A stretch of 64,000 bases of DNA, taken from positions 53,349-117,348 of the forward strand of contig CAVTUQ010000013.1 of NCBI GenBank assembly GCA_963737905.1, given 5' to 3'. The notes beneath the pieces are model-generated. The model searched no databases. It saw only the letters and a program-made list of their open reading frames with translations, and was not told where the DNA came from. Below, one piece after another: positions 48,871 to 64,000 of the stretch (positions are counted from its first letter, which is position 1; the number at the start of each line of letters is the position of its first letter). The DNA is from an uncultured delta proteobacterium (GTDB lineage Bacteria; Desulfobacterota; Binatia; UBA9968). The position numbers and the translations under genes are program-made.

Positions 48871-49773
48871 ATGGAGAAAACAGCGGTAGCTATTCTGGGG
48901 TCCGGCAATATCGGCACGGATCTCATGTACAAGCTCAAGCGCAGCAGTCTCCTCCGTCCCGTGCTCATGGCCGGCATCGTTCCTGACTCGGAAGGCCTGG
49001 CGCGGGCGCGTCAAGAGGGCCTGGCAACGACGACCGAAGGTATCGACGGTTTACTCAAACAAAAAGAAACTTTTGAAATCGTGTTCGATGCCACCACGGC
49101 AAGCGCGCACAAAAAACACGCCCCGCTGTTGCGCAACGCAAAGAAAATCGCCATAGACTTGACCCCTGCCGCCGTCGGGCCATACGTCATCCCGCTAGTC
49201 AATCTCGATGAGCATGTCGGCGCGAGCAACGTCAACCTCGTGAGTTGCGGCGGCCAGGCGACCGTGCCGCTGGTAAGCGCCCTCGATGAGGTCGCGCCGG
49301 TGGAGTACGCCGAGATCGTCGCCACCATCGCGAGCAAAAGCGCCGGTCCGGGCACCAGACAAAATATCGACGAGTTCACGGACACTACCGCTCGAGGATT
49401 GGAAAAGATCGGCCACGCTGCGCGCGGCAAGGCGATCATCGTTCTCAATCCAGCCGAGCCGCCGATCCTGATGCGCAACACGGTGCACGGCGTCCTGGCA
49501 GAGGCCGATGAGGCAAAGATTCTTCGCTCCATCGAATCGATGGTGGAGCGCATCCAGCAGTATGTGCCCGGCTATCGCCTGCGCGCCAAACCGCTGATCC
49601 AGGATCTGTCGAACGGCGAGCGCAAGAAGAAAGTAACTCTCTTCGTCGAAGTCGAAGGCGCGGGAGATTTTCTGCCAAAGTATGCGGGGAATCTTGATAT
49701 CATGACTTCAGCCGCGGTAAAGGTCGGCGAGGAAATTGGCCGGCACTTCCAAGCCGGCACCTGGACAAGGTAA
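48871..49773 (+). CDS. mhpF: Acetaldehyde dehydrogenase (acylating)
   Basis: [50 protein letters not shown]. Confidence 0.95.
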
Positions 49774-49790
49774 CCACCGGAGGCGATACA

Positions 49791-50819
49791 GTGAGCGACA
49801 AAACCTTCGTCCATATTTTGGACAGTTCGCTGAGAGATGGCAGTCATGCGTTAAGTCACCAGTACACCGCGGCACAGGTCAGCAGCGTGGCGCGCGCTTT
49901 GGATGACGCCGGCGTCGAGATGATCGAAGTTTCCCACGGCGACGGCTTGGGCGGATCGACGATCACCTATGGCTTCTCGAAGCAATCCGAGATGGAACTG
50001 CTGCAAGCGGCCTCAGAGGTTATCAAGAAAGGCAAGCTCGCGGTGCTACTCCTGCCGGGGATCGGCACCAAAGACGATCTCAAGATGGCCGCGGATTACG
50101 GCGCGAAAGTAGCGCAAATCGCCACTCACGTCACCGAGGCGGACATCGCTGAGCAACACATCGACGTAGCAAAAAAACTGGGCATGGAAGTGATCGGCAT
50201 GCTTATGCTGTCGCACATGGGATCGCCCGAGAAGATCGCCGAACAGGGAAAGCTCATGGAAAGCTACGGCGCCGACGTCGTTTTGGTCACCGACTCTGCG
50301 GGCGCGCTAATGCCCGACACGGTGAAGCAACGGGTGGCGGCGCTGCGCGCGGCGTTGCAGATTGGCGTCGGCTTTCACGGTCATAATAATCTCTCTCTTG
50401 CGGTTGCCAACAGCGTCGCAGCGATCGAAGAAGGCGCACGTTGGATTGATGCCTGCACTTGCGGCCTCGGCGCCGGCTCGGGCAACACGCCGACCGAAGT
50501 GCTGGCGGCGGTGCTGGACAAAATGGGCTACGAAACCGGAATCAACCTGTGGAAAATCATGGATGTCGCCGAGAACATCGTCCGCCCAATCATGCCGAAA
50601 CCTGTAAGAATAGGCAAAGTCAGTCTGACCATGGGCTACGCCGGAGTCTACTCGAGTTTTTTGCTCCACGCCGACAAAGCCGCGGAGCAGTTCGGCGTCG
50701 ATGCCCGCGATATTCTCGTCGAACTCGGCAAGCGCAAAGTCGTCGGCGGACAAGAGGACATGATCACAGAGGTGGCGATGATGCTGGCGGAAAAGCAAAA
50801 GCAACCTCCGACAGCTTAA
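49791..50819 (+). CDS. dmpG: 4-hydroxy-2-oxovalerate aldolase
   Basis: LRDGSH, EVSHGDGLGGS, HGHNNL, GLGAGSGN, GYAGVYSSFL, VGGQEDMI. Confidence 0.95.
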   Translation: MSDKTFVHILDSSLRDGSHALSHQYTAAQVSSVARALDDAGVEMIEVSHGDGLGGSTITYGFSKQSEMELLQAASEVIKKGKLAVLLLPGIGTKDDLKMAADYGAKVAQIATHVTEADIAEQHIDVAKKLGMEVIGMLMLSHMGSPEKIAEQGKLMESYGADVVLVTDSAGALMPDTVKQRVAALRAALQIGVGFHGHNNLSLAVANSVAAIEEGARWIDACTCGLGAGSGNTPTEVLAAVLDKMGYETGINLWKIMDVAENIVRPIMPKPVRIGKVSLTMGYAGVYSSFLLHADKAAEQFGVDARDILVELGKRKVVGGQEDMITEVAMMLAEKQKQPPTA

Positions 50820-50886
50820 GGCACGTCGGCAGGAATTCTATCTCCACCAACACACCAGGGAACAAACTTAAGGAGGAAAATTAACC

Positions 50887-51741
50887 ATGCCGGATTTTCG
50901 TTCTCGCGACGTGATGACTAGGCGATTTCGCACCCATTATACCGAGTGCGGTGACAACGGGCCTGCGCTCGTGTTGTGCGACGGTGGCGGGCCGGGCTCT
51001 TCCGGCGAAGCTGGCTTTGCGCAGTTGATGCCGGCTCTGGCAACAAAGTTTCAGGTCTACGCTCTCGACAGTGTCGGCGGCTTCGGCGAAACGGACCCCT
51101 ATTATCCGGCCAGCGAAGGAGTGCAAAGCCGCGTCGATCAGCTCGAAGCCTTTATGGATGTGCTCTGTATACACAAAGCTGTGGTGGGGGGAAACTCTCA
51201 AGGCGCCTGGGTTGCGGCGAAGTACGCGCTGCAGTATCCCGATCGGGTCGACAAGCTCGTGCTGGTAGCGAGCAATACCATCTCCGCAGCGATGGGACTG
51301 GAAAGCCCCGTAACCGAGGGCATGAAAGCGATCCGTGCTTATAACGGCAGCGAAGAGTCCATGCGCGCGTTCTTGAAAACCATCGTTTGGAACAAAAACC
51401 TAATCACCGATGACTTGGTTAAGCTGCGCAACGACTGCGCCAACCGTCCCGGCGCGGAAGCGGCCAGAAAGATTTTTCAGGAGGGCCAGCAAAGACTGAC
51501 CAAGGATCCTAATCTGCGCCTAAAGTTCGACATGCGTCACACCCTGCCCAAGCTTACTATTCCGGCCATTTGCGTTTGGGGCGAGGATGACGGCTTCGCC
51601 CCGGTGGCGCTCGGCAAACAGTTGGAAACAATGTTGCCCAACATCAAGTTTCACTATGTTTCCAATGCCGGCCACCAAGTGCAGAACGATCAGCCGCAAC
51701 TAGTTGCCAAGCTGATGATGGATTTCCTCGCCGCTACGTAA
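50887..51741 (+). CDS. Meta-cleavage product hydrolase (MhpC/BphD-like)
   Basis: GGGPG, GNSQG nucleophile, WGEDD, AGHQVQ; located in the meta-cleavage operon. Confidence 0.75.
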   Translation: MPDFRSRDVMTRRFRTHYTECGDNGPALVLCDGGGPGSSGEAGFAQLMPALATKFQVYALDSVGGFGETDPYYPASEGVQSRVDQLEAFMDVLCIHKAVVGGNSQGAWVAAKYALQYPDRVDKLVLVASNTISAAMGLESPVTEGMKAIRAYNGSEESMRAFLKTIVWNKNLITDDLVKLRNDCANRPGAEAARKIFQEGQQRLTKDPNLRLKFDMRHTLPKLTIPAICVWGEDDGFAPVALGKQLETMLPNIKFHYVSNAGHQVQNDQPQLVAKLMMDFLAAT

Positions 51742-51764
51742 TTCCCCCGTTCATCCCGCCCGAA

Positions 51765-51869
51765 AATCTCCCCTTCCCCTCCCTTCGACTTCGCTGCTTT
51801 TCCAAAGAGGGGTTAGAGATCCCACGGAGAAAATTTCCCCTTTGAAAAAGGCGGACGAAAGGGGGATTT
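51765..51869. repeat. REP-like composite inverted repeat between convergent genes
   Basis: aaatctcccct...ccaaagagggg...cccctttgaaaaagg...gggggattt. Confidence 0.55.
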
Positions 51870-51915
51870 GAGTTCGGCTTCAACTGTTGGGACACTAGGT
51901 CGGTTACCCAGCGTC

Positions 51916-52785
51916 TCACCAATAACGTCTTCTATAAGTATCGATGAGGACCTCGTCCTGACTATCGTCGAGAAATTCAAGCAAGGTTCGATTGAACTCT
52001 TCGGCGCGTTCAAATTGCGGCCAATGCCCCGACTTGTCGACAAGGACGAATCTTGAACCGGGCACGCTCTGATGCACTTTATCGGCCACCGGCCAAGGAC
52101 AAGTGGGATTATGGGTGGTCCAGAAAAAAAGGATCGGCGCCTGGAGTTTGGGAATCTTTTCGATGAGGTTATAAACGCTGCGATCCCGAGTGTGTAAAAC
52201 GTATTGCATCGCTGGATCACTGTAGATTTTCAGCCGGATGTCGACCAACTCATCCGGCAAAATTTTGGGATCGTGAAATAGCCATTCCATGCGCTTGCGG
52301 ATGGTCTCCTTCGTCGGTGTCCCGGTCGCGTCGCGGGTCAATTCTTGAAGTCGGCTTTGACCGGATACGTAACCATGCTCGCTGGACGGAATGCCGCCGA
52401 CGATCAGACCTAGCTTGTCGACACGCCCGGGATGTTCATAGGCGGTCAAAACGCTAATTTGCCCTCCCTGGGATTCTCCGACCAGGTGCGCTTTCTTGAT
52501 CTGCGCCGCATCCATGAAATCCAGTAAATGTTTTGAGAAAGCATCAAGATTGTAGTCGATCTTCGGTTTGTCCGTGTATCCATGCCCAAGATAGTCGATG
52601 GCGAGCACGCGAAACTTTGCCGACAGCGGGATAAGGTTTCTTACCCAGGTCTCGGCGTGGCCGCCACCACCATGTAGTAAGATTACCGGTTTGCCTTCGC
52701 CTTTTTCGAAGCAGCGAGTACGAATGCCCCCAGCGTCGTAGTACCGTTCGTATTGCGCGAAGGTTTCTAGTTCTTTCGATGCCAT
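51916..52785 (-). CDS. Alpha/beta hydrolase (MhpC-like)
   Basis: LLHGGGGHAETW, GHGYTDKP, GESQGG, SGHWPQFE. Confidence 0.85.
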   Translation of the reverse strand: MASKELETFAQYERYYDAGGIRTRCFEKGEGKPVILLHGGGGHAETWVRNLIPLSAKFRVLAIDYLGHGYTDKPKIDYNLDAFSKHLLDFMDAAQIKKAHLVGESQGGQISVLTAYEHPGRVDKLGLIVGGIPSSEHGYVSGQSRLQELTRDATGTPTKETIRKRMEWLFHDPKILPDELVDIRLKIYSDPAMQYVLHTRDRSVYNLIEKIPKLQAPILFFWTTHNPTCPWPVADKVHQSVPGSRFVLVDKSGHWPQFERAEEFNRTLLEFLDDSQDEVLIDTYRRRYW

Positions 52786-52838
52786 TTTCCAACTCCTTTC
52801 GTGAACCAAAACAATTGCTTTTCTCTGCCGTAACTTGA

Positions 52839-53237
52839 TTAGCCCTGATGAATGCCGAATTGGTATCCCGATTTTCGCACCACAAGAGCGAGGATAACAG
52901 CGACCCCGACCAGAATGCTTCCCACTACCGACGCGGCGGAATAATCCTCCGCCATAAGGTATCCAAGTTGCATAATGGAAAGCGGTTCAGTGTCGCTGGT
53001 TGTGAGTAACACAATGCTGCCCACCTGTCGGCTCACCGCCCCGAATACCATAACTGCGACAGCCGCCATGGTTGGCAGCATCAACGGCACCAGAATATGT
53101 CTCATGGTGTAACCCAACGAGCCGCCGTTGACTCTGCCGGCCTCTTCCAAATCGGCGCCCAGTTGGAGAAAGCTGCTCTTCAACATCTGCACCGAAAATG
53201 TCATTACCGTAAGCGCGAGAATCAGCACCAATAACGT
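52839..53237 (-). pseudogene. C-terminal fragment of an FbpB-like ABC permease
   Basis: QLGADLEEAGRVNGG...ILVPLMLP; no N-terminus. Confidence 0.7.
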
Positions 53238-54050
53238 GCGCCTGGTCGTCGGGATTATCGACCAGGGAGCCGGCGTACACGTAATGCAAAAGCAAGTCGT
53301 CGCCGAGATCCTCGGCATCAAGCCCGAGCGTATCACTGTCGAAGTGCCAGACACGAATCATGCGCCGTTTCATGACGGCATCAAAGGACAGGGCGCGACC
53401 CATGTCACCGGCCAGGCGGCGTCACGCGCCACCCACGCGCTGATCGAATCGATGAAAGCGCGCGCGGCATTCATTGGCAAGCGGACCCGGCTGGAATCGA
53501 CTGGCGCGATGGGCGAGTGTGGCTGCGGGACGGGAAAAAGAGCCTGGACTTGAAGCAATTCGCCTCCCTCGCCCCCAGGAGACCCCGGGCGTGGCTTTGC
53601 TTATTACGATGGACGGATCCGGCCGCGCGAGCATATCTTTCAATCCGTGATCGCCGACGTGGAGGTCGACAAGGAGAGCGGTCAAGTTCAAGTCAGGCGG
53701 CTGACCACCTTCCATGATGTCTCGGTCGTGATCAATTCGTTGACCCATCAGGGCCAAATCGAAGGCGGCATGCTGCAGGGTTTGGGCATGGCCGTTTGCG
53801 AAGAGATGCTCGTCGAAGACGGTCGCGTAACCACGCTCAGCCTGGGCGATTACAAGATCCCTACAATGCGCGATTTACCGGCGCACAAGACCACACTGGT
53901 CAGCGGCGCGACCCAGGGACGGCCCCTTCAACGCCAAGCCGGCCGCGGAGCATGCGATCACGCCGATCCCGCCGGCCATCGGCAACGCGGTCTTCAATGC
54001 CACCGGCGTGCGCCTGACGAGTCTGCCGCTTTCGGCGGAAAAAGTTTATG
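53236..54050 (+). pseudogene. C-terminal fragment of a xanthine dehydrogenase/CoxL-family molybdopterin subunit (frameshifted)
   Basis: DQGAG, ADVEVD.ESGQV, HDV...IN...GQIEGG..QGLG, DYKIPT, PAIGNAV..ATGVR. Confidence 0.8.
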
Positions 54051-54261
54051 ACGCGATGCGTGAGAAACAACAAGGATCCAACGGTAGATGAGATTGTCTT
54101 TTTTCCAAATTCTTCTAGTCATCGGCGATTTCCCACTGACCCAATGAGAGTACGCGATTGCGCCCGCAGAGCGCCAGGATGTTGGCTGGTAAAGGGGTTG
54201 CAAAAGAGGTAAAGAAATCGCGCCCATTATTACCGGCAAAGCGAAATAAGCCTACCATGCG

Positions 54262-54864
54262 CTACGCAGCTTTTCCCCGCAACCGTTTTACCAGCGCTTC
54301 GTAAGAGGAGCTGGAGATCACTCGATCGAACTGCGACCGGTAATTGTTGACGATACTGATGTTCTCCACGATGGCATCGTAGACTTTCCATTGACCATTC
54401 ACTTGCCGCAACTTGTAAACCACGGCGATCTCCTCACCCTTGGGCTGAATGATCGTTGATTCAACCTGCGCAAATTCGTTATCCACGACCTCGCGGCCAA
54501 AGCGCACTTGTTCGCCGCCATAGAGACCGATCTTGTCCGAGTAGACTCTTTGCAAGAATTCTCGGAACAGTTTGACGAACTCCTCCTGCTCTGCCGGGGT
54601 CCTTTGCCGCCAATGGTAACCAAGCGCTCGCTTGGCCATCTCCTCGTAATCAAAAATTGCATCGAGCGCCTCTGTCAAGCGATCCACTCGTTCCTTCTTT
54701 TTATCCGGGGAACTTAGTTTGGGGTCTTTCAGAATTTGAATCGCTCTATCGACAGTCGTGCGCACGAGATCCAGCGGCGCGCCTGCTTGAGCGCGTGTCA
54801 GAGAGGCAAGAGACAACATAAAAGTGAAAATGCAAATCTCAAACTGTCGCATCTTCCGATTCAT
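54262..54864 (-). CDS. mlaC: MlaC/Ttg2D-family phospholipid-binding protein
   Basis: FDYEEMAKRALG.HW, EFVKLF, WKVYD.IVENISIV.NYRSQF. Confidence 0.85.
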   Translation of the reverse strand: MNRKMRQFEICIFTFMLSLASLTRAQAGAPLDLVRTTVDRAIQILKDPKLSSPDKKKERVDRLTEALDAIFDYEEMAKRALGYHWRQRTPAEQEEFVKLFREFLQRVYSDKIGLYGGEQVRFGREVVDNEFAQVESTIIQPKGEEIAVVYKLRQVNGQWKVYDAIVENISIVNNYRSQFDRVISSSSYEALVKRLRGKAA

Positions 54865-55317
54865 TGGACTCATACTTTTGGAGATAAAGTCAGTGGGAAA
54901 AGCGAATATAAAAACCAGTCGGAAGCGTTCCTGGCTGATTTGATCCACCGCTTCTTCGATCCGGTAATACTCAGTTTAGATCTCAAAGTCAACATCCAAG
55001 ACGCAAAGCGCGTTCCGCAGCTTCTCATGCAAAATTCAGGCAGCAGAAACAATCAAAAACAACGCTAGCATTTTATATTTTGGATGAAACCGCCCGCCAA
55101 CTGTGGCGAGATCGATTCCGGATCCGAAGCCGAATCGTGGTGGCGAGTGCCAACTGGCTGCCACGTGGTAACCCGTAGCACCACGATGTTGGTACGTTGG
55201 ATTCGATTGAGCCTCCTACTTTCCGCATTTTCCTTCCCGTTCAACGATTTGCAACGCGACGGAGCGTCGCTCGCCAGCGCATTAAAGGCGCTAAACCGGG
55301 AGATTATTCTACGAGCG

Positions 55318-56139
55318 TCAGACCGGGAAGTGAACGCCCCAGAAGAGACGTACCTCGAGGTCGTCCGCCATGTTGCTGCCGTGCGTCCCACGCCCCGTCG
55401 ATGGATCAATGTGCGTGCCGTGATCTGACACGAATGCAATCGCATATGACGTGGTTGCCCACCGGTCGCGCGCCGCGCGAGCAACGCGATCGAAGTTGCG
55501 TACGTGGTTGGCCATCGCGCGCAGAGCCTCTGGACTCCGTGGTACCGTGGCGTGCATCTTGTCATCGTACTCCTGCTGGTACGCCAGAATGAAGTCATGC
55601 TGGTCCGCTGCGACGAGATTGAGCGTCCGCTCAACAACCTCCTCGTCGTAGGTCTCGGTGAAGTAGTCAATCCTCCGATTCCGGAAGATCAGATCGATTG
55701 AGGAGTTCTCCACGGCCACGATTGCGACACGGCGGCCGGCCCGCGAGAGCGCGTCGAAGAGGGTGTCGCAGGTCAGCGTCGGCCTTTCGGATTTGCGGAT
55801 GCCATGGGTGTCCGGAGGGGCGCCCGTGAACATCGATGCGAAGCAGACGGGTGTGACCGAGGGCATCACGGCGCATGCTTCAACCGATGTTGGTGCGTGG
55901 CGCGCGACCGGCTCAAAGGCCTTAGCGTTTGAGCGGACCAGGTGCGCACCGATCGCGTCGGCTGCGAACACGAGTGCCTTCGTCACGGTTCGACGCGCCG
56001 CGAACGCAGCGACCTCGCTGAATGGGGGCGCGACGCAATCGGCCGGTCTGGGAATCCCGAAGAGGTCACATACAGTGCTCGTCACCGACGCCACGTCAAG
56101 CATGCCTCGCATCATCTCGGATTCCGGCGGACGGAGCAA
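55318..56139 (-). CDS. Alkaline phosphatase superfamily (phosphodiesterase/metalloenzyme) protein
   Basis: ADA.G, PSVTPVCFASMFTG..P..HGI, YDD.MH, SDHG, GTHG. Confidence 0.8.
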   Translation of the reverse strand: MLRPPESEMMRGMLDVASVTSTVCDLFGIPRPADCVAPPFSEVAAFAARRTVTKALVFAADAIGAHLVRSNAKAFEPVARHAPTSVEACAVMPSVTPVCFASMFTGAPPDTHGIRKSERPTLTCDTLFDALSRAGRRVAIVAVENSSIDLIFRNRRIDYFTETYDEEVVERTLNLVAADQHDFILAYQQEYDDKMHATVPRSPEALRAMANHVRNFDRVARAARDRWATTSYAIAFVSDHGTHIDPSTGRGTHGSNMADDLEVRLFWGVHFPV

Positions 56140-56554
56140 GGGGTCCCCGCACCCGGGTCGACGTCGCCCGTCGCTCCGAAGCGCGCTAACCCATTCACAC
56201 GAGGCATGCCGGGCGCCTGTGGCAAGCTAACGTGGAATATACATCTTGCTACAGCCGACGATCAGGCTACCTTGTGAGACCAGGCGACCACGCTGTTACC
56301 CCAATGGAGGGGCCGATGTCCAGCCTTGTCCGCAGTTCGGTGCCGAAGTTGACATAAGACCCCATGTCGGATACGCCTGCCCAAAAATGCAGCTGTGAGG
56401 TTGGTTCGCTCTTTGCGGCGGCGCGTTTCGGCTCTTAAGGTCGGGTTGGCGGGCGATCGTCGGCGGAATTTTTAAATTCTCGGTGACGGACCTTCAAAAG
56501 CAAATTCCTATCAGTAATTTCTATAAGTTTGAATCGTCTAATCGAAAGGTTGGT

Positions 56555-57370
56555 ATGAGAGCGCGATTGTTAACAATCACGGGACTGGTGATATTATCTT
56601 TACTCAGCGCGAATTCCGAGGCGGATCAACCGTCAAGCAAAGCTTCAAACGTAGTTCCGGTTTATCAACCCAAGCATTATCCTTTTGACGGGGGCGAGAG
56701 ATTGGTTTATCACGCCAGTTGGAATGGGCTGTTCTCCGTGGCAACCGCCACGGTTCATACAACGTCGGAATGGGTCGATGGCCAAAAATTTTACAACGTT
56801 CGCGTCGAAGCGAGTTCATCAAAGCTCTTGGACTTCATCTGGAAAATGCGGGACAAGATCACATCAAAAATAAATGCAAATGGCCTTACGCCGACGCATT
56901 TCACGTTCAGCCAAAGAGAAAATCGCAAAGTCATTGATACCGTCGCGAGTTTTGACCGGACGACGAAAACATGGTCGGTGCATCGAGATGAGCGAGAGAA
57001 GGTTAAACGCTATCAGTTCGATGAACCGAACAATACGCTCGACGTGATCACGGCCGTTTACCTTGCCAGAAGCCTAGACTTCAAAGTGGGCGACCATCTT
57101 TATTTTCATATCTTCGGCGGAAAGTACCGCTATCTGTTGGATTTACAAGTGGAATGTAAGGAAACTATCCGACTCAAGTCCGGCAATATCGAAGCGTTTA
57201 AGTTCGTTCCGAGGATTGAGGATGTTCTGCAAGAGGGATACGCAACAAGATTGAATGAAGCGGCGGTTTGGATATCCGCCGATGAGCGTCGCCTGCCGGT
57301 CATGCTCAAAGGTAAGATTATTTTCGGCAGCGTCTACATTGAAATCTCGGATGATAGCGCTCCGATCTAG
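56555..57370 (+). CDS. DUF3108-domain exported protein
   Basis: Signal peptide, PF..GERL.Y..SW, D.ITA.Y.AR, WISADERRLPV....I.FGSV. Confidence 0.75.
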   Translation: MRARLLTITGLVILSLLSANSEADQPSSKASNVVPVYQPKHYPFDGGERLVYHASWNGLFSVATATVHTTSEWVDGQKFYNVRVEASSSKLLDFIWKMRDKITSKINANGLTPTHFTFSQRENRKVIDTVASFDRTTKTWSVHRDEREKVKRYQFDEPNNTLDVITAVYLARSLDFKVGDHLYFHIFGGKYRYLLDLQVECKETIRLKSGNIEAFKFVPRIEDVLQEGYATRLNEAAVWISADERRLPVMLKGKIIFGSVYIEISDDSAPI

Positions 57371-57556
57371 ACATTTTCGGAAAAGAACTCCCGATCTTCA
57401 TAACTCTGCCCGTTTCAACACTATTCCCGCCCTTCGCGCTATTAAAATGAACCCGGTCCTAAAGAAAAAATTCGCGGTCTTCCCTGTCCTGGATTGGATG
57501 ACAGAATATCTACTGGGCACCTCGTGTTTCAGCCCACACGCTGTACTTTTCCCCTT

Positions 57557-58522
57557 TTAGCTCGCCGGTATCTCTGGTTGCCGTGAATCATAGCGAACCC
57601 AACGACTAAATGCGCTGATTTCTTTGTCAAAGATAAATTTGAGCACGAGTCGCGTATAGGACTGGTAGGCAAATAAGGTCCGGTAAAATTCAGGAGCCAT
57701 GCGGTAAAGCTGCGGCAGTCTGCTCCACGCGACCATGGGAAAGTCATGATGCTCATTATGAAATCCCATATTGAACATCACCCAATTGAGCGGGCCATAA
57801 TACGAATAGGTCTCTTGCTGTTTGCCCATAACATCATAGTGCTCTTGAATCCAGCGGCCGCCTAACGGATGCAACCCCAAAGCAAAGAATGTCGAGAGGA
57901 GCAAATACATCAGTCCACCCCACCCTACATACAACCAGAGCCAGTAACTCACCCCTAACTGCAAGGCGATATTGGTAACCGCCCACGGGTCGACAAACGA
58001 TTGGCCCGGAACCTTTAGTGGCCGCAAGGCCTGCGAAACAGACAACAAAGCGAGCCACAGCGACTTCCGCAGAGGACCATGACCAATCAGCCGGCCTTCA
58101 AATTGGCTCACCACGTCCGGATCCATCGTTATTTTATTTAGGTGTTGGTGATGCAAAAGATGATACTTTCTGAAACTCATAGCGCTGGGGACAATTAAGG
58201 CAAAATCACAACTGAGGCCGGCAAGCTTGTTTAACACTGGTATTGCGAAAATTAAGTTGTGCGTTGCCTCATGCATTAACACATACAACCCATGATTGAG
58301 AACCGCGCCAGCAAGATAAGCCACAGGCAAAATCACGTACCACGGCTGATCGCAAAGCAGCCAGGCCACTGTCCATTGCAGAGCGACCAGCCCGACAATG
58401 AGGAGGGCTGACAGAGGATAGGGGCCAAACAATACCTTCACCTCGGGATAATGTTTAATGATATCTTTACGGCGTTGGGTGTGAACCTGCTCAGACTGCC
58501 CGTTGATAGTGAAGGAATCCAT
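57557..58522 (-). CDS. Sphingolipid delta-4 desaturase/C4-hydroxylase (DEGS/DES-like) membrane desaturase
   Basis: N-term H..RRKDIIKHYPEVKVL; His boxes HEATH, HLLHH, HNEHH; LGLHP, ETYSYYGPLN..FN.G.HNEHHDFP. Confidence 0.85.
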   Translation of the reverse strand: MDSFTINGQSEQVHTQRRKDIIKHYPEVKVLFGPYPLSALLIVGLVALQWTVAWLLCDQPWYVILPVAYLAGAVLNHGLYVLMHEATHNLIFAIPVLNKLAGLSCDFALIVPSAMSFRKYHLLHHQHLNKITMDPDVVSQFEGRLIGHGPLRKSLWLALLSVSQALRPLKVPGQSFVDPWAVTNIALQLGVSYWLWLYVGWGGLMYLLLSTFFALGLHPLGGRWIQEHYDVMGKQQETYSYYGPLNWVMFNMGFHNEHHDFPMVAWSRLPQLYRMAPEFYRTLFAYQSYTRLVLKFIFDKEISAFSRWVRYDSRQPEIPAS

Positions 58523-58668
58523 AGGAATAGGAATTTTATACCCCTTTTTTCTAAGCGGAGATATAGCGCCGGTGCGCCGAGCCCGTCAAGCACAGCCGAG
58601 AACGCTATAGAAAAGGTTAAAAAGTAGCGTATTTTATCGAGGATCTTCAGGCAGGTAAACGGAACGCT

Positions 58669-59664
58669 TCATGATCGGCGTTCTTTAACCTCTTTTAGCT
58701 TGAGTCCCGGCTGCACAAAATCAGGGAAAATCGGGCGGACATCTTGCGCGCCGGTTCCTTGCGGTGAAAGCCGGCACCACTGATCGGGATAGCGCCGCAC
58801 CATGTCTTCCAAACGACGAGTAAACAGGGCCAGATTTGTAGCAACGTCCTCCTGCAGGTCTCCTGTTCTGACGAGATCGATTTCAGGGCTGACACGAAGG
58901 GTCAGACGATCCTCAGCGTCCCGCGTGACACACATAGGAACAACTGCCGCGCCGGCGCGTAAAGCCAGGGTCACAGGACCACGGCGAACATAGACAGCGG
59001 AACCCAAAAACTCTGTGTTTACCTTCCCGGATTTAAACACATCCGGGAGGACAACAACCGCTTCGTTCCGCCTTAATGCGCCAAGGATTTGTCGAGCCGC
59101 CTGCCTGCGCGGCTTAGCCGATATCGTTTTAACTCCAGCCTTCGCTCTGTAGCTGTCCAGTAAACGGGCCAATCTTTGGTCTGGCGGGTGCTTGACTACA
59201 ATGCTGAAGGGGTGTCCCGCCGCGGCAAGACGGGGAGCAATCATAGTAAAATTTCCTAAATGAGCGCCGAGCGCAATCACCCCCTTGCCCTTTTCCAAAG
59301 CCCGCTGCAAATACTCCTCGCCCTCAACAGCAACGCTGGCACATATTGCGTCCCTGGAGGTATAAAGCGTGGAGGCAGTCTCATAAAGTCCCTGGACAAA
59401 ATTCCTCCAGGCCAAACGAGCCACAGTCTTTCTCTTCTCCACCGATAAGAATTGGTCGCTCAAAGCCATGGAGACATTCTTTTCCATCAGTTTTCGGTAT
59501 GGCCATAAAATAGCGAAAGTCAGATGGACGGTCGCCGAGGTCATGAGAACGAGCAGGCGGTGAGGAATTCTCGGAACGAGGAAGATAATTGCCCTCAGCG
59601 AATATTCCGCTGCGCGGTACAGTAACCAATCGAGAAATTTCTTGGAGGAAAAACGGTCCTTCAT
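58669..59664 (-). CDS. LpxL/HtrB-like lysophospholipid acyltransferase family protein
   Basis: VEGEEYL..AL.KGKGVI.L.AHLGNF, EFLG, GP..LALRAGA.VVP, VRRYPDQW. Confidence 0.85.
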   Translation of the reverse strand: MKDRFSSKKFLDWLLYRAAEYSLRAIIFLVPRIPHRLLVLMTSATVHLTFAILWPYRKLMEKNVSMALSDQFLSVEKRKTVARLAWRNFVQGLYETASTLYTSRDAICASVAVEGEEYLQRALEKGKGVIALGAHLGNFTMIAPRLAAAGHPFSIVVKHPPDQRLARLLDSYRAKAGVKTISAKPRRQAARQILGALRRNEAVVVLPDVFKSGKVNTEFLGSAVYVRRGPVTLALRAGAAVVPMCVTRDAEDRLTLRVSPEIDLVRTGDLQEDVATNLALFTRRLEDMVRRYPDQWCRLSPQGTGAQDVRPIFPDFVQPGLKLKEVKERRS

Positions 59665-60310
59665 CCCAGCCGGACTATCTGTGAGCCTTTCGACACTTTT
59701 GACACATTTGACGATTGTTCGTCAACGGCACGACGCGTGATTTCTAAACAAATGGATCGAATTATCGATGGGGCGAGACATTGTGTGCCTGGTGAGCGCG
59801 AGGATATCTGACGCAAATCTTTTATGACCACCGAATGGAATTGGGATGCGTCTGTCTCAATATTTCCAGCGCCGCCCAAAATTGGGGCCTTACTTGGGTC
59901 TATCGTTTACCAGGTTTACTTGAACTCGGATTCCGCAGTTGAAGGTGAAGCAAAGAGCAAGGCGCAAGCCTTCCGCAGCGACGCAATAGGCCTGTGCCTC
60001 TGAGCCAAGTTGCGAGCAGCGGTGCAGTGAGCGGGGTCCTCAACCGTTGCGAACGGAGTGACGGGTAACAAAAATGACTTTGAAACACTACGGTTCTGTG
60101 CGTTCGCTGCTCCAGGCTCACGCCCCGCTCAGCGTAGATCATAACGTTAACTGCGGAATCCGGGTTGAATGAAGATGAAGACGATGTTACAAGGGAAAAA
60201 TTTAGAGGATGTGGAGGTTGTAATTTCGCTCATCGGCAGGAGCTGTGGGTTGTAATCCCGGTTGCGTCTCAGCGCTTCCCGGCTTCGGTTTCCCCGAGTA
60301 AGCTCCTGCC

Positions 60311-61453
60311 GTGCGTACCACTGCCGAATCCGTAAGAATCGTCCCGGTAAGTGACTCGCGGGACCTGCGCCGGTTCATTCGCGTGCCTTGGTCGGTCTAT
60401 GCCGACGACCCAACATGGGTCCCGCATTTGTTGCTAGAGCGACGCGAGCAGTTTTCTCCCCGCAACCCATACTTCGCGCACGCGCGCTGCTGTTTTTGGC
60501 TTGCCTATCGCGGGACCAGGCCAGTCGGTCGGATCAGCGCCCAGATTGATGAATTACACGAAGAGCGGTATCGGGATGCCACCGGATTTTTCGGCTTCCT
60601 CGAGGCCGAGAATGAGGCGGGGACGTTTCACGGACTGTTGAGTACGGCTGAAGTCTGGCTGCGTGACCAGGGCATGTTGCGGATCCGCGGGCCGTTCAAC
60701 TTTTCCATCAACCAGGAGTGCGGGCTTCTTGTGGACGGTTACGACACGCCCCCAATGATTATGATGGGCCACTCCCGCCCGTACTATGCCGCTCGGCTAA
60801 CAGCCGAGGGATACCAGGGCGTAAAGGACTTGTTGGCCTATCGTCTCTCCACCCATTTCACTCCCCCCGAGTTCATGAAGGCCGTTTTGAACAAAGCCGC
60901 TGGCCATGCGCGGGTCAGGCCGCTGCGCAAATCACAGTTGAATGAGGACCTCGAAATTATCAAGGACATTTTCGAGGATGCCTGGTCCACGAACTGGGGA
61001 TTCATTCCATTCAGCAAGGACGAGGTTCGGCATCTAGGCTACAATTTGCGACTGCTAGTTGATGACGATGCCGTGCAAATTGCGGAGGTGGACGGGGTGC
61101 CGGCCGCGATGATCGTAGCCTTGCCGAACTTAAATGAAGTGATACGAGACCTTCAGGGACGTTTGCTTCCATTTGGCTGGCTCAAGCTCTTGTGGCGGCT
61201 GAAAGTGAAATCTCCGAAAACGGCTCGCGTTGTGCTGATGGGAGTGCGCAAACGTTTTCAACGAAGCCCGCTTGGAGCCGCGCTGGCTTTCCTCCTTATC
61301 GATGCCGTGCGCGGCTATGGAATCAGGCGCGGAGTTCAGGAAGTTGAGCTGTCCTGGATTCTGGAAGATAACATGCCGATGCGGAATATGCTCACGATGG
61401 TCGGAGGCGTCCCGTACAAACGCTACCGTATTTATGAAAAGGCATTCAGATGA
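60311..61453 (+). CDS. YghO-like double-GNAT N-acyltransferase; candidate bacterial ceramide synthase (bCerS-like)
   Basis: FIRVPW.VY.DDP.WVP.L, GRISAQID, GFFGF.E, GPFNFSINQECGLLVDG.DTPP..MM.H..PYY, AWS.NWGF.P, ELSWILEDN..M, YKRYRIYEK. Confidence 0.75.
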   Translation: MRTTAESVRIVPVSDSRDLRRFIRVPWSVYADDPTWVPHLLLERREQFSPRNPYFAHARCCFWLAYRGTRPVGRISAQIDELHEERYRDATGFFGFLEAENEAGTFHGLLSTAEVWLRDQGMLRIRGPFNFSINQECGLLVDGYDTPPMIMMGHSRPYYAARLTAEGYQGVKDLLAYRLSTHFTPPEFMKAVLNKAAGHARVRPLRKSQLNEDLEIIKDIFEDAWSTNWGFIPFSKDEVRHLGYNLRLLVDDDAVQIAEVDGVPAAMIVALPNLNEVIRDLQGRLLPFGWLKLLWRLKVKSPKTARVVLMGVRKRFQRSPLGAALAFLLIDAVRGYGIRRGVQEVELSWILEDNMPMRNMLTMVGGVPYKRYRIYEKAFR

Positions 61454-61524
61454 GTAGCGGACTGCCGTTGTAAGAAAAAAGAGGCTCAACGAGTTACTCA
61501 ATTTGTGAATAAAAGAGAACGCAG

Positions 61525-62265
61525 ATGGATGCTTCCAAGACAGCTGACGTACGTGTCAACGATACTTTTTTAGCACCGCTGGAACGACCGGCGCTGCAAT
61601 GGCTATGCAAACACATGCCTGCCTGGATGACTCCCGACATACTCACTGTGATTGGCTTGATTGGCGGGGTGGTCATGGCGATTGCGTACTGGTTGTGCAA
61701 CGTGAATAAAAATTTTTTATGGATCGTGGATCTTGGCCTTGTGATCAACTGGTTCGGCGATAGTCTCGATGGCTCTTTGGCACGATACCGCGGAATCGAA
61801 CGATTCAAGTACGGCTATTTTGTCGATCATACTGTCGATATCACGACGCAAACCATCGTCCTCCTCGGCCTAGGAGTGTCTCCGTTTGTCCACTTCAATT
61901 TCGCGCTGCTAGCGCTCGTCGGTTATTTGCACCTTGGGATTTTAACGTATATAGACACCGCCGTATCCGGAGTGTACAAAATTTCTTACGGCAAAATCGG
62001 CCCCACAGAAGTTCGCGTGTTCGTCATCGGCCTGAATGCCATATTCTATTTCGCCAGTAATCCGATGATTCATATGGGGAGGGTGAGTATTTTCTCTTTT
62101 GATGCTATCGTGTTGTGTGTTGCCATAGTCTTTTTTCTCCATTTCCTGGGCTTTACCTTGCGGAGGATGATGGAACTTAATGTTCAAGATCCTCCCAAAG
62201 GGAACCCCTTGCAGTCGCAATCTTATCAAGCTGGCATCTCAAGAGAAAGAAGTAGTGTGACATGA
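61525..62265 (+). CDS. CDP-alcohol phosphatidyltransferase family protein
   Basis: TPD.LT..G, DSLDGSLAR...YGYFVDHTVD (DxxDGxxAR...GxxxDxxxD), GPTEVR. Confidence 0.92.
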   Translation: MDASKTADVRVNDTFLAPLERPALQWLCKHMPAWMTPDILTVIGLIGGVVMAIAYWLCNVNKNFLWIVDLGLVINWFGDSLDGSLARYRGIERFKYGYFVDHTVDITTQTIVLLGLGVSPFVHFNFALLALVGYLHLGILTYIDTAVSGVYKISYGKIGPTEVRVFVIGLNAIFYFASNPMIHMGRVSIFSFDAIVLCVAIVFFLHFLGFTLRRMMELNVQDPPKGNPLQSQSYQAGISRERSSVT

Positions 62266-63758
62266 GCGTTTCTAAGATGGGAGTGGCAGGTATCACAAGG
62301 GCCGTTCTTTTGACCGCGAATACGGCCCCTACCAAGGCAACGTATGATGCTGTGTACGGCGGGGAACCCCTGTTGACCCGCGCTCTGGTTGCTCTGTCGA
62401 AGGCAGGGATACGGTCCGTATGGATAATTTGTCATGAGGGAGACCGTGAAAAGATTGCTGCGCTAATCGGGAAGGCACGAACCCGCCTTGCGCTGGATTA
62501 TGATATTTGTCCGATCCGTACCGGTGAGACACTTTCTGAGGTCGTGTCCCGTATCGTCGAACAGTGGGATACGTCTTTTTTGCTGTTCGAAACCAATAAA
62601 GTTGTCCATCCTACATTTTTTGCGCAGATGGCCCAATTTGCCGCATCACCAAAGCCGGTGCTCGTTGTCTATAAACATGTATGGTTGAATGGAGGGAAGG
62701 TCGCTTTCGAGAGTGCATTCCCGGACAAATTCAAAGTGATATTTGCCCACCCGGAGTCCTTTACCAAGATTGCGCTCGATAACAGCGTTTTCCAGAGCAA
62801 CACCTTCGATGTCGGACCTACTCATCCGGTAGAAGTCTCTCCCACCCTCTCCAATGGCATCTTCAGTACCGATGTGGTTGTTTGTCATCGCGTTCATTTG
62901 CAACGCCTTTCATGCAGCAATGTTGCTGATCTGATCCACCACTGGCACAAGCAGCAACTCCTCAGGCTGGGGTTCGTCGAAAATGCTTGGTGGCTGCCGG
63001 TTACTGGAAGAGAATCGCAAGAGGATCGGACTGAATTTTTTTGGCGTATTGCCTTCAAAGAAATTAGTGGGGAATTTTCCAAACTGGTCAACTCCCACCT
63101 CTCCAAACCCTTGACGTTCTTGTTTGTGCGTTTTGGCTTCAGCCCAAACGCCATTAGCATCCTGGAACTCAGCTTATTCCTCGTCTCCTCTGCTTTTCTG
63201 CTCATACCGCAGTACTGGGCAATGTTGGTGTTTGCCGTTGTGTGGCAGTTTTCTGCCGGGGTGTTAGACCGGTGTGATGGTGAGGTCGCACGCATCCGCA
63301 ATTATGAATCGGAAGCCGGAGCACGGTTCGATATGCTCATTGACGACCTCCGCTTTGCGCTTCCGTTTGTATTTTTGACCATCGCGTGTTATCGCGAATC
63401 GCATCGCGATCTGGGGTATCTTGTCGTCGCGGTGGCAACGGCCGCGTGGTATAGCACTGCCGTCGTTTATCACAATCGCTTTTTGCGGCGAGCCGGATAC
63501 GTGAGCGTCCAAACTATGGGCGTCGACTTTTTAAAAACGCAGGCGGAGACCCGTTGGTTCGCTGTGTTTCGGAGAATTCAGCCGTTTACGAAAGGCGACA
63601 TTCGTACGTTTTATATCTTTCTGGCAACCTTCCTGGGCAACAAATCGGTCCTCTTCTGGATGCTGGTTGCCTATGCGTGGCCGTTGGGCGCGTCGTATTT
63701 TTTTACCGTTATAAAATTTCGTCAGCCGTCCGCCAGCGCGCCAGCCAGCATCGCCTGA
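62262..63758 (+). CDS. Fusion of a degenerate nucleotidyltransferase-like domain and a CDP-alcohol phosphotransferase
   Basis: N-term YGGEPLLTRAL.AL.KAGIRSVWII; C-term SPN.IS, LDRCDGEVAR...GARFDMLID. Confidence 0.8.
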   Translation: MSVSKMGVAGITRAVLLTANTAPTKATYDAVYGGEPLLTRALVALSKAGIRSVWIICHEGDREKIAALIGKARTRLALDYDICPIRTGETLSEVVSRIVEQWDTSFLLFETNKVVHPTFFAQMAQFAASPKPVLVVYKHVWLNGGKVAFESAFPDKFKVIFAHPESFTKIALDNSVFQSNTFDVGPTHPVEVSPTLSNGIFSTDVVVCHRVHLQRLSCSNVADLIHHWHKQQLLRLGFVENAWWLPVTGRESQEDRTEFFWRIAFKEISGEFSKLVNSHLSKPLTFLFVRFGFSPNAISILELSLFLVSSAFLLIPQYWAMLVFAVVWQFSAGVLDRCDGEVARIRNYESEAGARFDMLIDDLRFALPFVFLTIACYRESHRDLGYLVVAVATAAWYSTAVVYHNRFLRRAGYVSVQTMGVDFLKTQAETRWFAVFRRIQPFTKGDIRTFYIFLATFLGNKSVLFWMLVAYAWPLGASYFFTVIKFRQPSASAPASIA

Positions 63759-63791
63759 AGCGGCTCTTGTCTGACCGCGACCGTACACACT

Positions 63792-64000
63792 ATGGCCTTG
63801 CTAGACAGACATCGTAGACTGGCACGCCTTCTCCCGCTTGTGGGCAACGTCCCTCCACCGGGCACACGTGCACAGCCTGAGTGTGTTGTGCTAGGCGTAC
63901 GGAAGGGTGTCCCCCCGAGTCCAAAACCGCCGGTCCGTATCTTTGTCGGTACCGAACCCGCCCAGTATCGCGCCGAGCGGGTCTTCTTCTGGTCGATCGA
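63792..64000 (+). CDS. Probable GT-A fold glycosyltransferase, 5' part only (runs off window)
   Basis: Open frame from ATG 63792: ...KPPVRIFVGTEPAQYRAERVFFWSI. Confidence 0.5.
   Translation, partial: MALLDRHRRLARLLPLVGNVPPPGTRAQPECVVLGVRKGVPPSPKPPVRIFVGTEPAQYRAERVFFWSI

Follow-up and report, generated by a model that had tools for sequence, protein, structure and literature searches.

Described sphingolipid systems and the genes of the window

Bacterial sphingolipids are described as dihydroceramides, unlike eukaryotic ceramides, in the review PMC10191378. In Caulobacter crescentus, the sphingolipid and ceramide diphosphoglycerate locus is given as CC_1152-CC_1168 and includes cerS/bcerS, spt, acpR, cerR, aasR, cpgA-D and LptF2/G2 (PMC11324152, PMC9393093, PMC12275187). 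Here we analyzed a related locus at the right-hand end of a 64,000-base stretch of DNA, the window, from an uncultured delta proteobacterium (contig C13:53349-117348 of genome G000; the last base of the window is the last base of the contig). The G000 assembly comprises 6.7 Mb in 46 contigs, with a completeness of 87.5% and a contamination of 6.7%. The locus has two divergent arms (Table 1): one carries a GNAT acyltransferase of the bacterial ceramide synthase (bCerS) family, two CDP-alcohol phosphotransferases (CDP1 and CDP2) and a gene cut by the contig end; the other carries an LpxL-like acyltransferase and a DEGS-type desaturase/hydroxylase homologue (DES). An earlier note had read the region as a pathway for desaturated ceramides with phospho- or glyco-head groups. 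All of the genes it listed were recovered, intact and where it had placed them, by open reading frame (ORF) calls and Pfam/NCBIfam scans, and its sphingolipid interpretation is supported, as none of three computational refutation tests went against it. The region is probably one half of a split sphingolipid locus.

Like the Caulobacter locus, the window contains a bCerS-family GNAT, and genes for Spt, ACP, CerR and AasR are present in G000. Both systems have a CDP-alcohol phosphotransferase for the ceramide head group, proposed here and represented in Caulobacter by CpgA, the precedent for such a transferase in a sphingolipid pathway (PMC9393093, PMC12275187). Relatives of the window also have a COG1213-type cytidylyltransferase and LptF/LptG paralogues beside bCerS. 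Unlike Caulobacter, the window locus has no ceramide kinase (CpgB), and the sole DAGK_cat gene of the genome is on contig C11; CpgC is stated to have no family model (PMC9393093). The window further differs in having two CDP-alcohol transferases, one of them an IPCT-DIPPS-like fusion, in having a DEGS-type desaturase (PF08557 was absent from the Caulobacter control) together with an LpxL-like acyltransferase, and in having its spt arm elsewhere in the genome.

The yghO-spt cluster of Escherichia coli (BL21; R10) resembles the locus through yghO, whose product is 47% identical to the window GNAT. In strain R10 (RefSeq), yghO is divergent from a fatty acyl-AMP ligase, an NAD-dependent epimerase/dehydratase, ACP and spt, followed by lptG and lptF; it differs in that no desaturase, LpxL-like gene or CDP-alcohol transferase was found within 9 kb on either side of yghO. 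In strain K-12 (3129043-3131340), IS5 abuts the 5' end of yghO and is followed by yghQ, where R10 has the acyl-AMP ligase, epimerase, ACP, spt, lptG and lptF. Among the 5,426 complete E. coli genomes, 4,549 had a match to yghO.

Three more distant systems resemble single parts of the locus. DES shares with eukaryotic DEGS1/DEGS2 the Lipid_DES plus FA_desaturase architecture and three histidine boxes; it differs in coming from a bacterial host, and the likeness is known at the level of domain architecture only. CDP2 resembles IPCT-DIPPS (4mnd) and AF2299 (4o6m) of Archaeoglobus fulgidus in combining a nucleotidyltransferase-like domain with a six-helix CDP-alcohol phosphotransferase carrying an intact motif; it differs in being 16% identical to 4mnd when the structures are aligned and in lying in a lipid locus rather than in one for solute synthesis. 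In Bacteroides vulgatus and Prevotella, a putative alternative inositol-lipid cluster is described that consists of an NTP transferase, a CDP-alcohol phosphatidyltransferase and an HAD hydrolase, in which a cytidylyltransferase makes the CDP-alcohol and a transferase loads it onto lipid, ending in a phospho-dihydroceramide (PMC9246714). That pathway is itself unconfirmed and tied to MIPS, and its cluster is without bCerS, DES or an LpxL-like gene.

The core, namely bCerS, Spt, ACP, CerR, AasR, the cytidylyltransferase and the LptF/G paralogues, is already known from bacterial sphingolipid synthesis in Caulobacter and E. coli. What is new is the set formed by the DEGS-type enzyme, the LpxL-like acyltransferase and the pair of CEPT-like and IPCT-DIPPS-like transferases, placed where other lineages have the spt arm. 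With a eukaryote-type desaturase, an additional acyltransferase and two transferases for head groups alongside bCerS, the locus should give a product of greater complexity than the known saturated bacterial ceramides. The earlier note did not recognize this combination as a described operon, and our literature search likewise found no description of the gene set; nor did it find a paper naming a bacterial enzyme for C4 desaturation or hydroxylation, which is not proof that none exists. The locus offers a candidate for such a C4-modifying enzyme, physically tied to bCerS, as well as candidates for direct CDP-alcohol-dependent head-group transfer to ceramide, for a third acylation and for glycosylation. 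It bears on whether soil bacteria have eukaryote-type ceramide chemistry and, with the Lpt paralogues of its relatives, on bacterial outer-membrane lipids that stand beside or replace lipopolysaccharide.

Table 1. Features of the locus and its surroundings. Coordinates are window positions, except for the block on contig C2.
Feature	Coordinates	Strand	Family match and remarks
MlaC/HpnM-like periplasmic lipid-binding protein	54262..54948	-	PF05494, 166.9 bits
Alkaline-phosphatase-superfamily type I phosphodiesterase/phosphatase	55318..56139	-	PF01663, 44.8 bits
DUF3108 protein	56483..57370	+	PF11306, 115.6 bits; N-terminal signal-like hydrophobic stretch
DES, DEGS-type sphingolipid C4 desaturase/hydroxylase homologue	57557..58522	-	PF00487, 99.7 bits; PF08557 Lipid_DES
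LpxL/PatA-like membrane acyltransferase (Lip_A_acyltrans)	58669..59664	-	PF03279, 99.3 bits; upstream of DES, same strand
Divergent intergenic region between the two arms	59665..60310	.	646 bases; holds a roughly 245-base segment with inverted ends
Bacterial ceramide synthase (bCerS/CC_1154/YghO family), tandem-GNAT N-acyltransferase	60311..61453	+	PF00583, 25.5 bits; 380 amino acids
CDP1, small CDP-alcohol phosphotransferase	61525..62265	+	PF01066, 31.4 bits
CDP2, nucleotidyltransferase-like N-terminus and DIPPS-like CDP-alcohol phosphotransferase C-terminus	62262..63758	+	PF01066, 40.4 bits; 498 amino acids
First 69 codons of a gene truncated at the contig end	63792..64000	+	810 amino acids in relative L130, with an ELM1 domain
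aasR-cerR-acp-spt block	contig C2:1865-6257	spt (-), others same strand	Spt over the NF047599 cut-off; neighbors by family

The probable ceramide synthase and the backbone genes of the genome

The GNAT gene is very probably that of a bCerS-family enzyme in a sphingolipid locus. The YghO likeness proposed for it was borne out by E. coli K-12 YghO, which is 47% identical over 364 of the 380 amino acids (E 2e-124). The proposed double GNAT was likewise seen in an AlphaFold model (predicted local distance difference test, pLDDT, 94.8; predicted template modeling score, pTM, 0.91), which has a tandem-GNAT fold and, as its best PDB matches, the tandem-GNAT proteins 5kf1, 7q3a and 2wpw, together with MshD; a PDB search by sequence gave only chance-level matches. 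The legend to Fig. 9 of PMC9386255 lists yghO (ECD_02850) as the counterpart of Caulobacter CC_1154. Because the Caulobacter sequence itself was not aligned, the link from the window GNAT to the validated Caulobacter enzyme runs through this published orthology and through gene context. In a FastTree tree of 151 rows (11 of the 162 candidate rows, being shorter than 340 amino acids or containing X, were left out), the window GNAT fell inside a 32-row clade with a support of 100, and the next enclosing supported clades brought in rows linked to Spt, CerR and AasR. The grouping with bCerS on which the earlier note depended is thus upheld by the YghO identity, the published orthology and the nesting among Spt-linked homologues.

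The GNAT family is large and shows good conservation, with 6,946 clusters at 50% identity when searched at E <= 0.001 and 1,201 at E <= 1e-30. Relatives at 60-79% identity occur in metagenome-assembled genomes (MAGs) of NC10, Desulfobacterales and Nitrospirales, and the nearest named ones are from Nitrospiraceae/Nitrospirales and NC10 MAGs. Homologues in the protein atlas bear automatic names such as 'putative DNA-binding protein' and 'dATP pyrophosphohydrolase family protein'. Some representatives of the family (P0123, P0255, P0137 and P0219) are fused forms of 630-940 amino acids; P0123 has two matched stretches within 784 amino acids.

Gene context was counted in two sets, 80 loci on genome contigs, in which the GNAT homologue is 47-70% identical to that of the window, and 80 metagenome loci. 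Within 10 kb of the GNAT homologue on the genome contigs, an AasR-like acyl-AMP ligase was found in 36 of the 80 loci, a CerR-like reductase in 34, Spt in 33 and an MsbA-like ABC transporter in 22. This set also held an LptF paralogue in 55 loci, an LptG paralogue in 53 and a small nucleotidyltransferase in 33. The metagenome counts are lower bounds because many of those contigs are only 1.5-8 kb long; in this set, spt, cerR and aasR were linked to the GNAT homologue in 15-27 of the 80 loci.

Spt and the reductase had been reported as missing from the window, with the suggestion that they and an ACP be looked for in the rest of the genome. All three were located on contig C2 of G000. Spt (C2:1865-3046) scored 627.6 bits on the NCBIfam model NF047599 'serine palmitoyltransferase', whose cut-off is 500, and is one of 11 PF00155 matches in the genome. 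Upstream on the same strand lie an ACP of 80-odd amino acids with a DLGLDSM motif, a CerR-like protein of the epimerase/dehydratase family and a 640-amino acid AasR-like ligase. An ABC transporter gene lies downstream of spt and ends at the first bases of the contig. By homology and gene context, G000 combines a bCerS gene with all of the genes for the ceramide backbone. Of 41 relatives, a count that takes in G000, only G000 and same-genus G002 had an Spt above the cut-off; the tallies of Spt and GNAT among relatives take in two unpublished genomes (G006 and G012), both negative. Contig C170 of G002 has the same aasR-cerR-spt block at 92-97% amino acid identity, which helps the case that the block and bCerS share one cell. 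A junction between the end of C13 and the start of C2 was shown by no relative in the metagenome and genome-contig loci. Contig C5:59883-60855 contains a second, BioF-like alpha-oxoamine synthase, matched as two pieces that overlap and lie in different frames, which points to either a frameshift or a fault in the assembly.

Candidate modification genes, proposed pathway and rival explanations

The neighborhood survey that the earlier note had called for found the gene order kept in close relatives from soil metagenomes, with DES and the LpxL-like gene on one arm, and bCerS, CDP1, CDP2 and the gene for the 810-amino acid protein in this order on the divergent arm. All metagenome loci with a GNAT of at least 84% identity keep the order of the window. 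Among the 80 metagenome loci, the LpxL-like gene was linked to the GNAT in 31, CDP1 in 31, DES in 26, CDP2 in 24 and the gene for the 810-amino acid protein in 17. On the genome contigs, DES and CDP1 were each found in 0 of 80 loci, CDP2 in 2-3 and an LpxL-like gene, weakly, in 1-2. In loci with a GNAT of 57-79% identity, aasR-cerR-acp-spt occupies the place of the LpxL-like gene and DES.

Locus L153 (GNAT 78%) has an independent arrangement, with CDP2 (65%) and CDP1 (63%) on the opposite strand and two GT2 genes, a GT4 gene and LptF/LptG as their neighbors. Beyond the cut gene, L148 and L171 have a LicC/IMPCT-like nucleotidyltransferase (a COG1213-type cytidylyltransferase) on the other strand and next an LptF paralogue, after which the L171 contig stops and that of L148 continues with LptG and a PMT_2 glycosyltransferase. 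In L154 (6242-9379) and L153 (814-2327), where the GNAT is 78% identical, the sphingolipid locus includes genes for a TagF-like CDP-glycerol glycerophosphotransferase, two nucleotidyltransferases of the MobA-like kind and an FkbM methyltransferase, which suggests poly(phospho-alcohol), teichoic-acid-like head groups on ceramide in these lineages.

Three soil RNA libraries from three studies yielded contigs covering DES, the LpxL-like gene, the GNAT, CDP1 and CDP2 at 90-99% identity. These contigs bridge the GNAT and CDP1, CDP1 and CDP2, and CDP2 and the next gene, and one contig spans the LpxL-like gene and DES. They give weak evidence of expression of the locus, with DNA carry-over possible and transcript ends not resolvable from contigs.

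DES likely acts on the ceramide backbone. Enzymes of the FA_desaturase family have a three-histidine-box pattern, and the DES translation has HEATH, HLLHH and HNEHH. Against a cut-off of 23, its Lipid_DES domain (PF08557) scored 35.4 bits in the window and 38.6 bits when the genome was scanned. The same model matched none of 14 control genomes, including Caulobacter and Bacteroides thetaiotaomicron, and of 401 genomes sampled from the phylum it exceeded its cut-off in one, namely G000, in a scan with a short model that scored up to 18 candidates per genome. Relatives of DES carry the Joint Genome Institute (JGI) name 'sphingolipid 4-desaturase/C4-monooxygenase', and a Halobacteriovorax relative (52%) was deposited as a 'putative hydroxylase'. 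The reaction that we infer is C4 desaturation, or alternatively C4 hydroxylation. A Kiloniellales MAG (G446) has a homologue 52% identical to DES on a contig other than that of its GNAT homologue; no Pfam family was found in the six ORFs flanking it, the calls of which were crude and may be wrong.

The chance that the LpxL-like enzyme acylates the sphingolipid seems slightly less than even. PF03279 enzymes (LpxL, LpxM and PatA) acylate hydroxyl groups. The protein of the window remained under every NCBIfam equivalog cut-off, with a best score of 101 bits against 248 (NF006270) and 77.5 against 209 on the PatA model; because no LpxL, LpxM or PatA cut-off was reached, it is filed as LpxL-like only. 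It is the third by score of four PF03279 paralogues in G000, at 99.1 bits compared with 138, 134.8 and 38.4 for the others.

CDP1 and CDP2 probably build ceramide head groups. The two overlapping CDP-alcohol phosphotransferases first noticed here both match PF01066 and overlap by 4 bases; for the second of them the label is incomplete, since the PF01066 domain is only one part of a two-domain IPCT-DIPPS architecture. The best PDB sequence match of CDP1 was CEPT1 (8gyw, E 2.4e-8), and its closest solved relatives are the choline/ethanolamine phosphotransferases CEPT1 and CHPT1. These enzymes move a phospho-alcohol from a soluble CDP-alcohol to a lipid alcohol. The CDP-alcohol phosphotransferase motif, given as DxxDGxxAR...GxxxDxxxD (PMC9246714), is intact in CDP1 (DSLDGSLAR...GYFVDHTVD) and in CDP2 (DRCDGEVAR...GARFDMLIDD). 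CDP2 had profile matches to AF2299 (4o6m) and IPCT-DIPPS (4mnd), and its model (pLDDT 83.2) had 4mnd as the best Foldseek match over the full length (E 3.7e-13). Residues 1-250 fold like a nucleotidyltransferase and match enzymes of that kind, among them the inositol-phosphate cytidylyltransferase of Thermotoga maritima (4jd0; template modeling score 0.66, normalized to the target), which is likewise reported as the best structural hit of Caulobacter CpgD (PMC12275187). The CDP2 family is narrow, with 157 matches, and its architecture of roughly 490 amino acids is kept down to 42% identity.

What had been called the start of a glycosyltransferase at the window's right edge is instead the start of the ELM1-domain protein, which is full length in L130, a locus with 97-99% amino acid identity to the window. 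Its ELM1 domain (PF06258) scored 188.7 bits over residues 429-691, and its first 420 amino acids gave a sub-threshold GT8 match (E 0.0028; 17.7 bits against a cut-off of 24.3). A GT2 gene follows it in L130. The remainder of the gene was not found in the G000 assembly; together with the cytidylyltransferase and a second LptF/G pair, it presumably lies beyond the contig end.

In the proposed pathway, AasR, ACP and Spt would make 3-ketosphinganine, a known route to which the genes on contig C2 are homologous. The window bCerS would N-acylate 3-ketosphinganine, and CerR would then reduce the product to dihydroceramide. DES, as a di-iron enzyme, would desaturate or hydroxylate C4 of the long-chain base, and the LpxL-like enzyme may attach one more acyl chain by an ester bond, like secondary lipid A acyltransferases and PatA. 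CEPT-like CDP1 would move a phospho-alcohol from a soluble CDP-alcohol to the 1-hydroxyl of ceramide in the manner of the Kennedy pathway, IPCT-DIPPS-like CDP2 could add or extend a second phosphodiester, and the ELM1-domain protein, with the GT2 enzyme in relatives, may add sugar. The COG1213-type cytidylyltransferase of the relatives would supply the CDP-alcohol, and the LptF/LptG paralogues would export the lipid to the outer membrane. The arrangement in the relatives resembles the ceramide diphosphoglycerate system of Caulobacter. This explanation as a whole, from backbone through decoration to export, is in our judgment probable.

Several observations weigh against it. The linkage of DES and the LpxL-like gene is confined to one shallow clade (GNAT of at least 84% identity), so the many loci are not independent of one another, and among 10 named bCerS-bearing genomes only one has DES, there on a different contig. 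bCerS and spt are not adjacent in G000 and lie on separate contigs of an 87.5%-complete, 6.7%-contaminated MAG, so it is the binning that places them in one cell; same-genus G001 and G002, which are 93% and 89% complete, gave no match to the GNAT. Neither a cytidylyltransferase gene of the type seen in the relatives nor a second LptF/LptG pair was found in the G000 assembly. The catalytic motif of LpxL is H-x4-D/E. The LpxL-like protein keeps the His (AHLGNFT) and has Thr in place of the acidic residue; the position is also non-acidic in the paralogues on C4 and C2, is Asp in the C22 paralogue (HLGNLD), and the relatives in L187 and L192 have the canonical WE. For CDP2, no G-x-G-x-R loop is recognizable in residues 17-26, and these columns vary across the family, so the N-terminal domain may be non-catalytic. 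Pfam NTP_transferase reached only E 0.16 on CDP2; E35, R40, R75 and H116 are invariant in the family alignment, and the catalytic residues given for IMPCT are R16, K26 and D112 (PMC12275187). Finally, no myo-inositol-phosphate synthase (PF01658) was found in the 87.5%-complete G000.

The confinement to one clade would also fit an explanation in which only the GNAT is sphingolipid-related, and DES, the LpxL-like enzyme, CDP1, CDP2 and the ELM1 protein act on different lipids of the envelope (glycerophospholipids, lipid A or hopanoid-associated lipids), having become adjacent by lineage-specific rearrangement. Three other PF03279 paralogues and five further PF01066 genes in G000 are in keeping with this, as are the nearby MlaC/HpnM-like gene and, as a sign of rearrangement, gene fragments upstream at 52.8-54.1 kb. 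However, Lipid_DES is by its Pfam definition specific to sphingolipid C4 desaturases, and the only genome of the phylum scan with this domain also has Spt. CDP1 and CDP2 recur with bCerS and LptF/G in the different arrangement of L153, and weak LpxL-like matches stand beside LptF/G in L064, L089, L187 and L192 (27-33 bits in the genome set, 90-98 bits in L187 and L192). The longest contig recorded is 71,464 bases both for a relative of DES (P0275, 82%) and for one of CDP2 (P0461, 64%), which is suggestive only. Taken together, we regard this other-lipid explanation as quite improbable. Far less credible still is that CDP2 and CDP1 together produce, instead of a lipid head group, a soluble phosphodiester, for example di-myo-inositol phosphate. 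It would account for the best structural and profile matches of CDP2, to A. fulgidus IPCT-DIPPS and AF2299, and for its best NCBIfam match, the IPCT/DIPPS model NF041135; yet that score was 56.4 bits, far under the cut-off of 580, the nucleotidyltransferase signature is not conserved, and the failure to find an inositol-phosphate synthase in the 87.5%-complete genome counts against a solute as well. In 24 of 80 loci, moreover, CDP2 keeps its place between bCerS and genes resembling envelope glycosyltransferases.

A further alternative keeps the sphingolipid and changes the chemistry: DES would be a C4-hydroxylase giving phytoceramide, and the LpxL-like enzyme would esterify the new hydroxyl or a 3-hydroxy-acyl group to yield a three-chain, lipid-A-like sphingolipid. 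The JGI and Halobacteriovorax names agree with it, as do the hydroxyl acceptors of PF03279 enzymes and the adjacency of the LpxL-like gene and DES, 146 bases apart on one strand and spanned by a single RNA-library contig. On the other hand, no sequence feature tested separates a desaturase from a hydroxylase in DES; we consider this alternative unlikely. The broader form of the proposed pathway, in which a C4-modified ceramide gains a third, ester-linked acyl chain, phospho-alcohols taken straight from CDP-alcohols by a Kennedy-type ceramide phosphotransferase without a ceramide kinase step, a sugar and export by dedicated Lpt paralogues, as a lipid-A-like sphingolipid, is put forward tentatively. 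If it is true, the bacterial sphingolipid locus has been remodeled in a lineage of soil bacteria, with DES as the first enzyme from bacteria shown to form a true (4-unsaturated) ceramide or a phytoceramide and CDP1 as the first CDP-alcohol:ceramide phosphotransferase from bacteria.

Flanking genes and the divergent spacer

Of the 80 metagenome loci, 13 have the phosphodiesterase gene, seen here to the left of DES, next to the cluster. Its orientation is reversed in L126 and L133; in L148 and L200 it immediately follows DES, co-oriented with it and without an intervening DUF3108 gene. The phosphodiesterase is a candidate for trimming a phosphorylated head-group intermediate. The DUF3108 gene, which ORF strands confirmed to be convergent with DES, occurs in 8 of 80 metagenome loci, and its position is empty in L126, L133, L143, L148, L183 and L200. 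Because it is variably present between the phosphodiesterase gene and DES, it is not a fixed member of the cluster; the DUF3108 homologues (63%) of same-genus G001 and G002 lie in other contexts. The MlaC/HpnM-like gene was syntenic in 1 of 80 metagenome loci (L161, 95% identity), most contigs being too short to reach it, and is possibly accessory to the cluster.

Promoter and Rfam scans of the spacer between the two arms found no sigma-70-like site and no Rfam match. The spacer contains a segment (59920-60165) whose left end is GGATTCCGCAGTT and whose right end is the reverse complement, AACTGCGGAATCC. Some metagenome and RNA-library contigs skip 59919-60165 or 59796-60165, and DNA depth peaks at the segment. 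One copy of it, 67% identical, was found on contig C1. The segment may be a small mobile insertion in the shared promoter region.

Compared with the same-genus genomes, the flank of the window gave scattered short matches only, from which no island boundary could be drawn. Just upstream of the lipid genes, 52839-54051 is a decayed or rearranged stretch with gene remnants, one being a 171-amino acid C-terminal piece of an ABC permease (BPD_transp_1) and two being separate pieces of a molybdopterin-binding subunit in different frames (MoCoBD_2, profile positions 57-137 and 206-283). Further left, 48871-52809 holds meta-cleavage genes (a DmpF-type acetaldehyde dehydrogenase and a DmpG-type 4-hydroxy-2-oxovalerate aldolase) and two alpha/beta hydrolases, unrelated to the sphingolipid locus. 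Between the two hydrolase genes, roughly 150 bases at 51733-51890 match dozens of G001 and G002 contigs at 71-87% identity and only one other place in G000; the stretch looks like a dispersed short repeat, possibly collapsed in this assembly.

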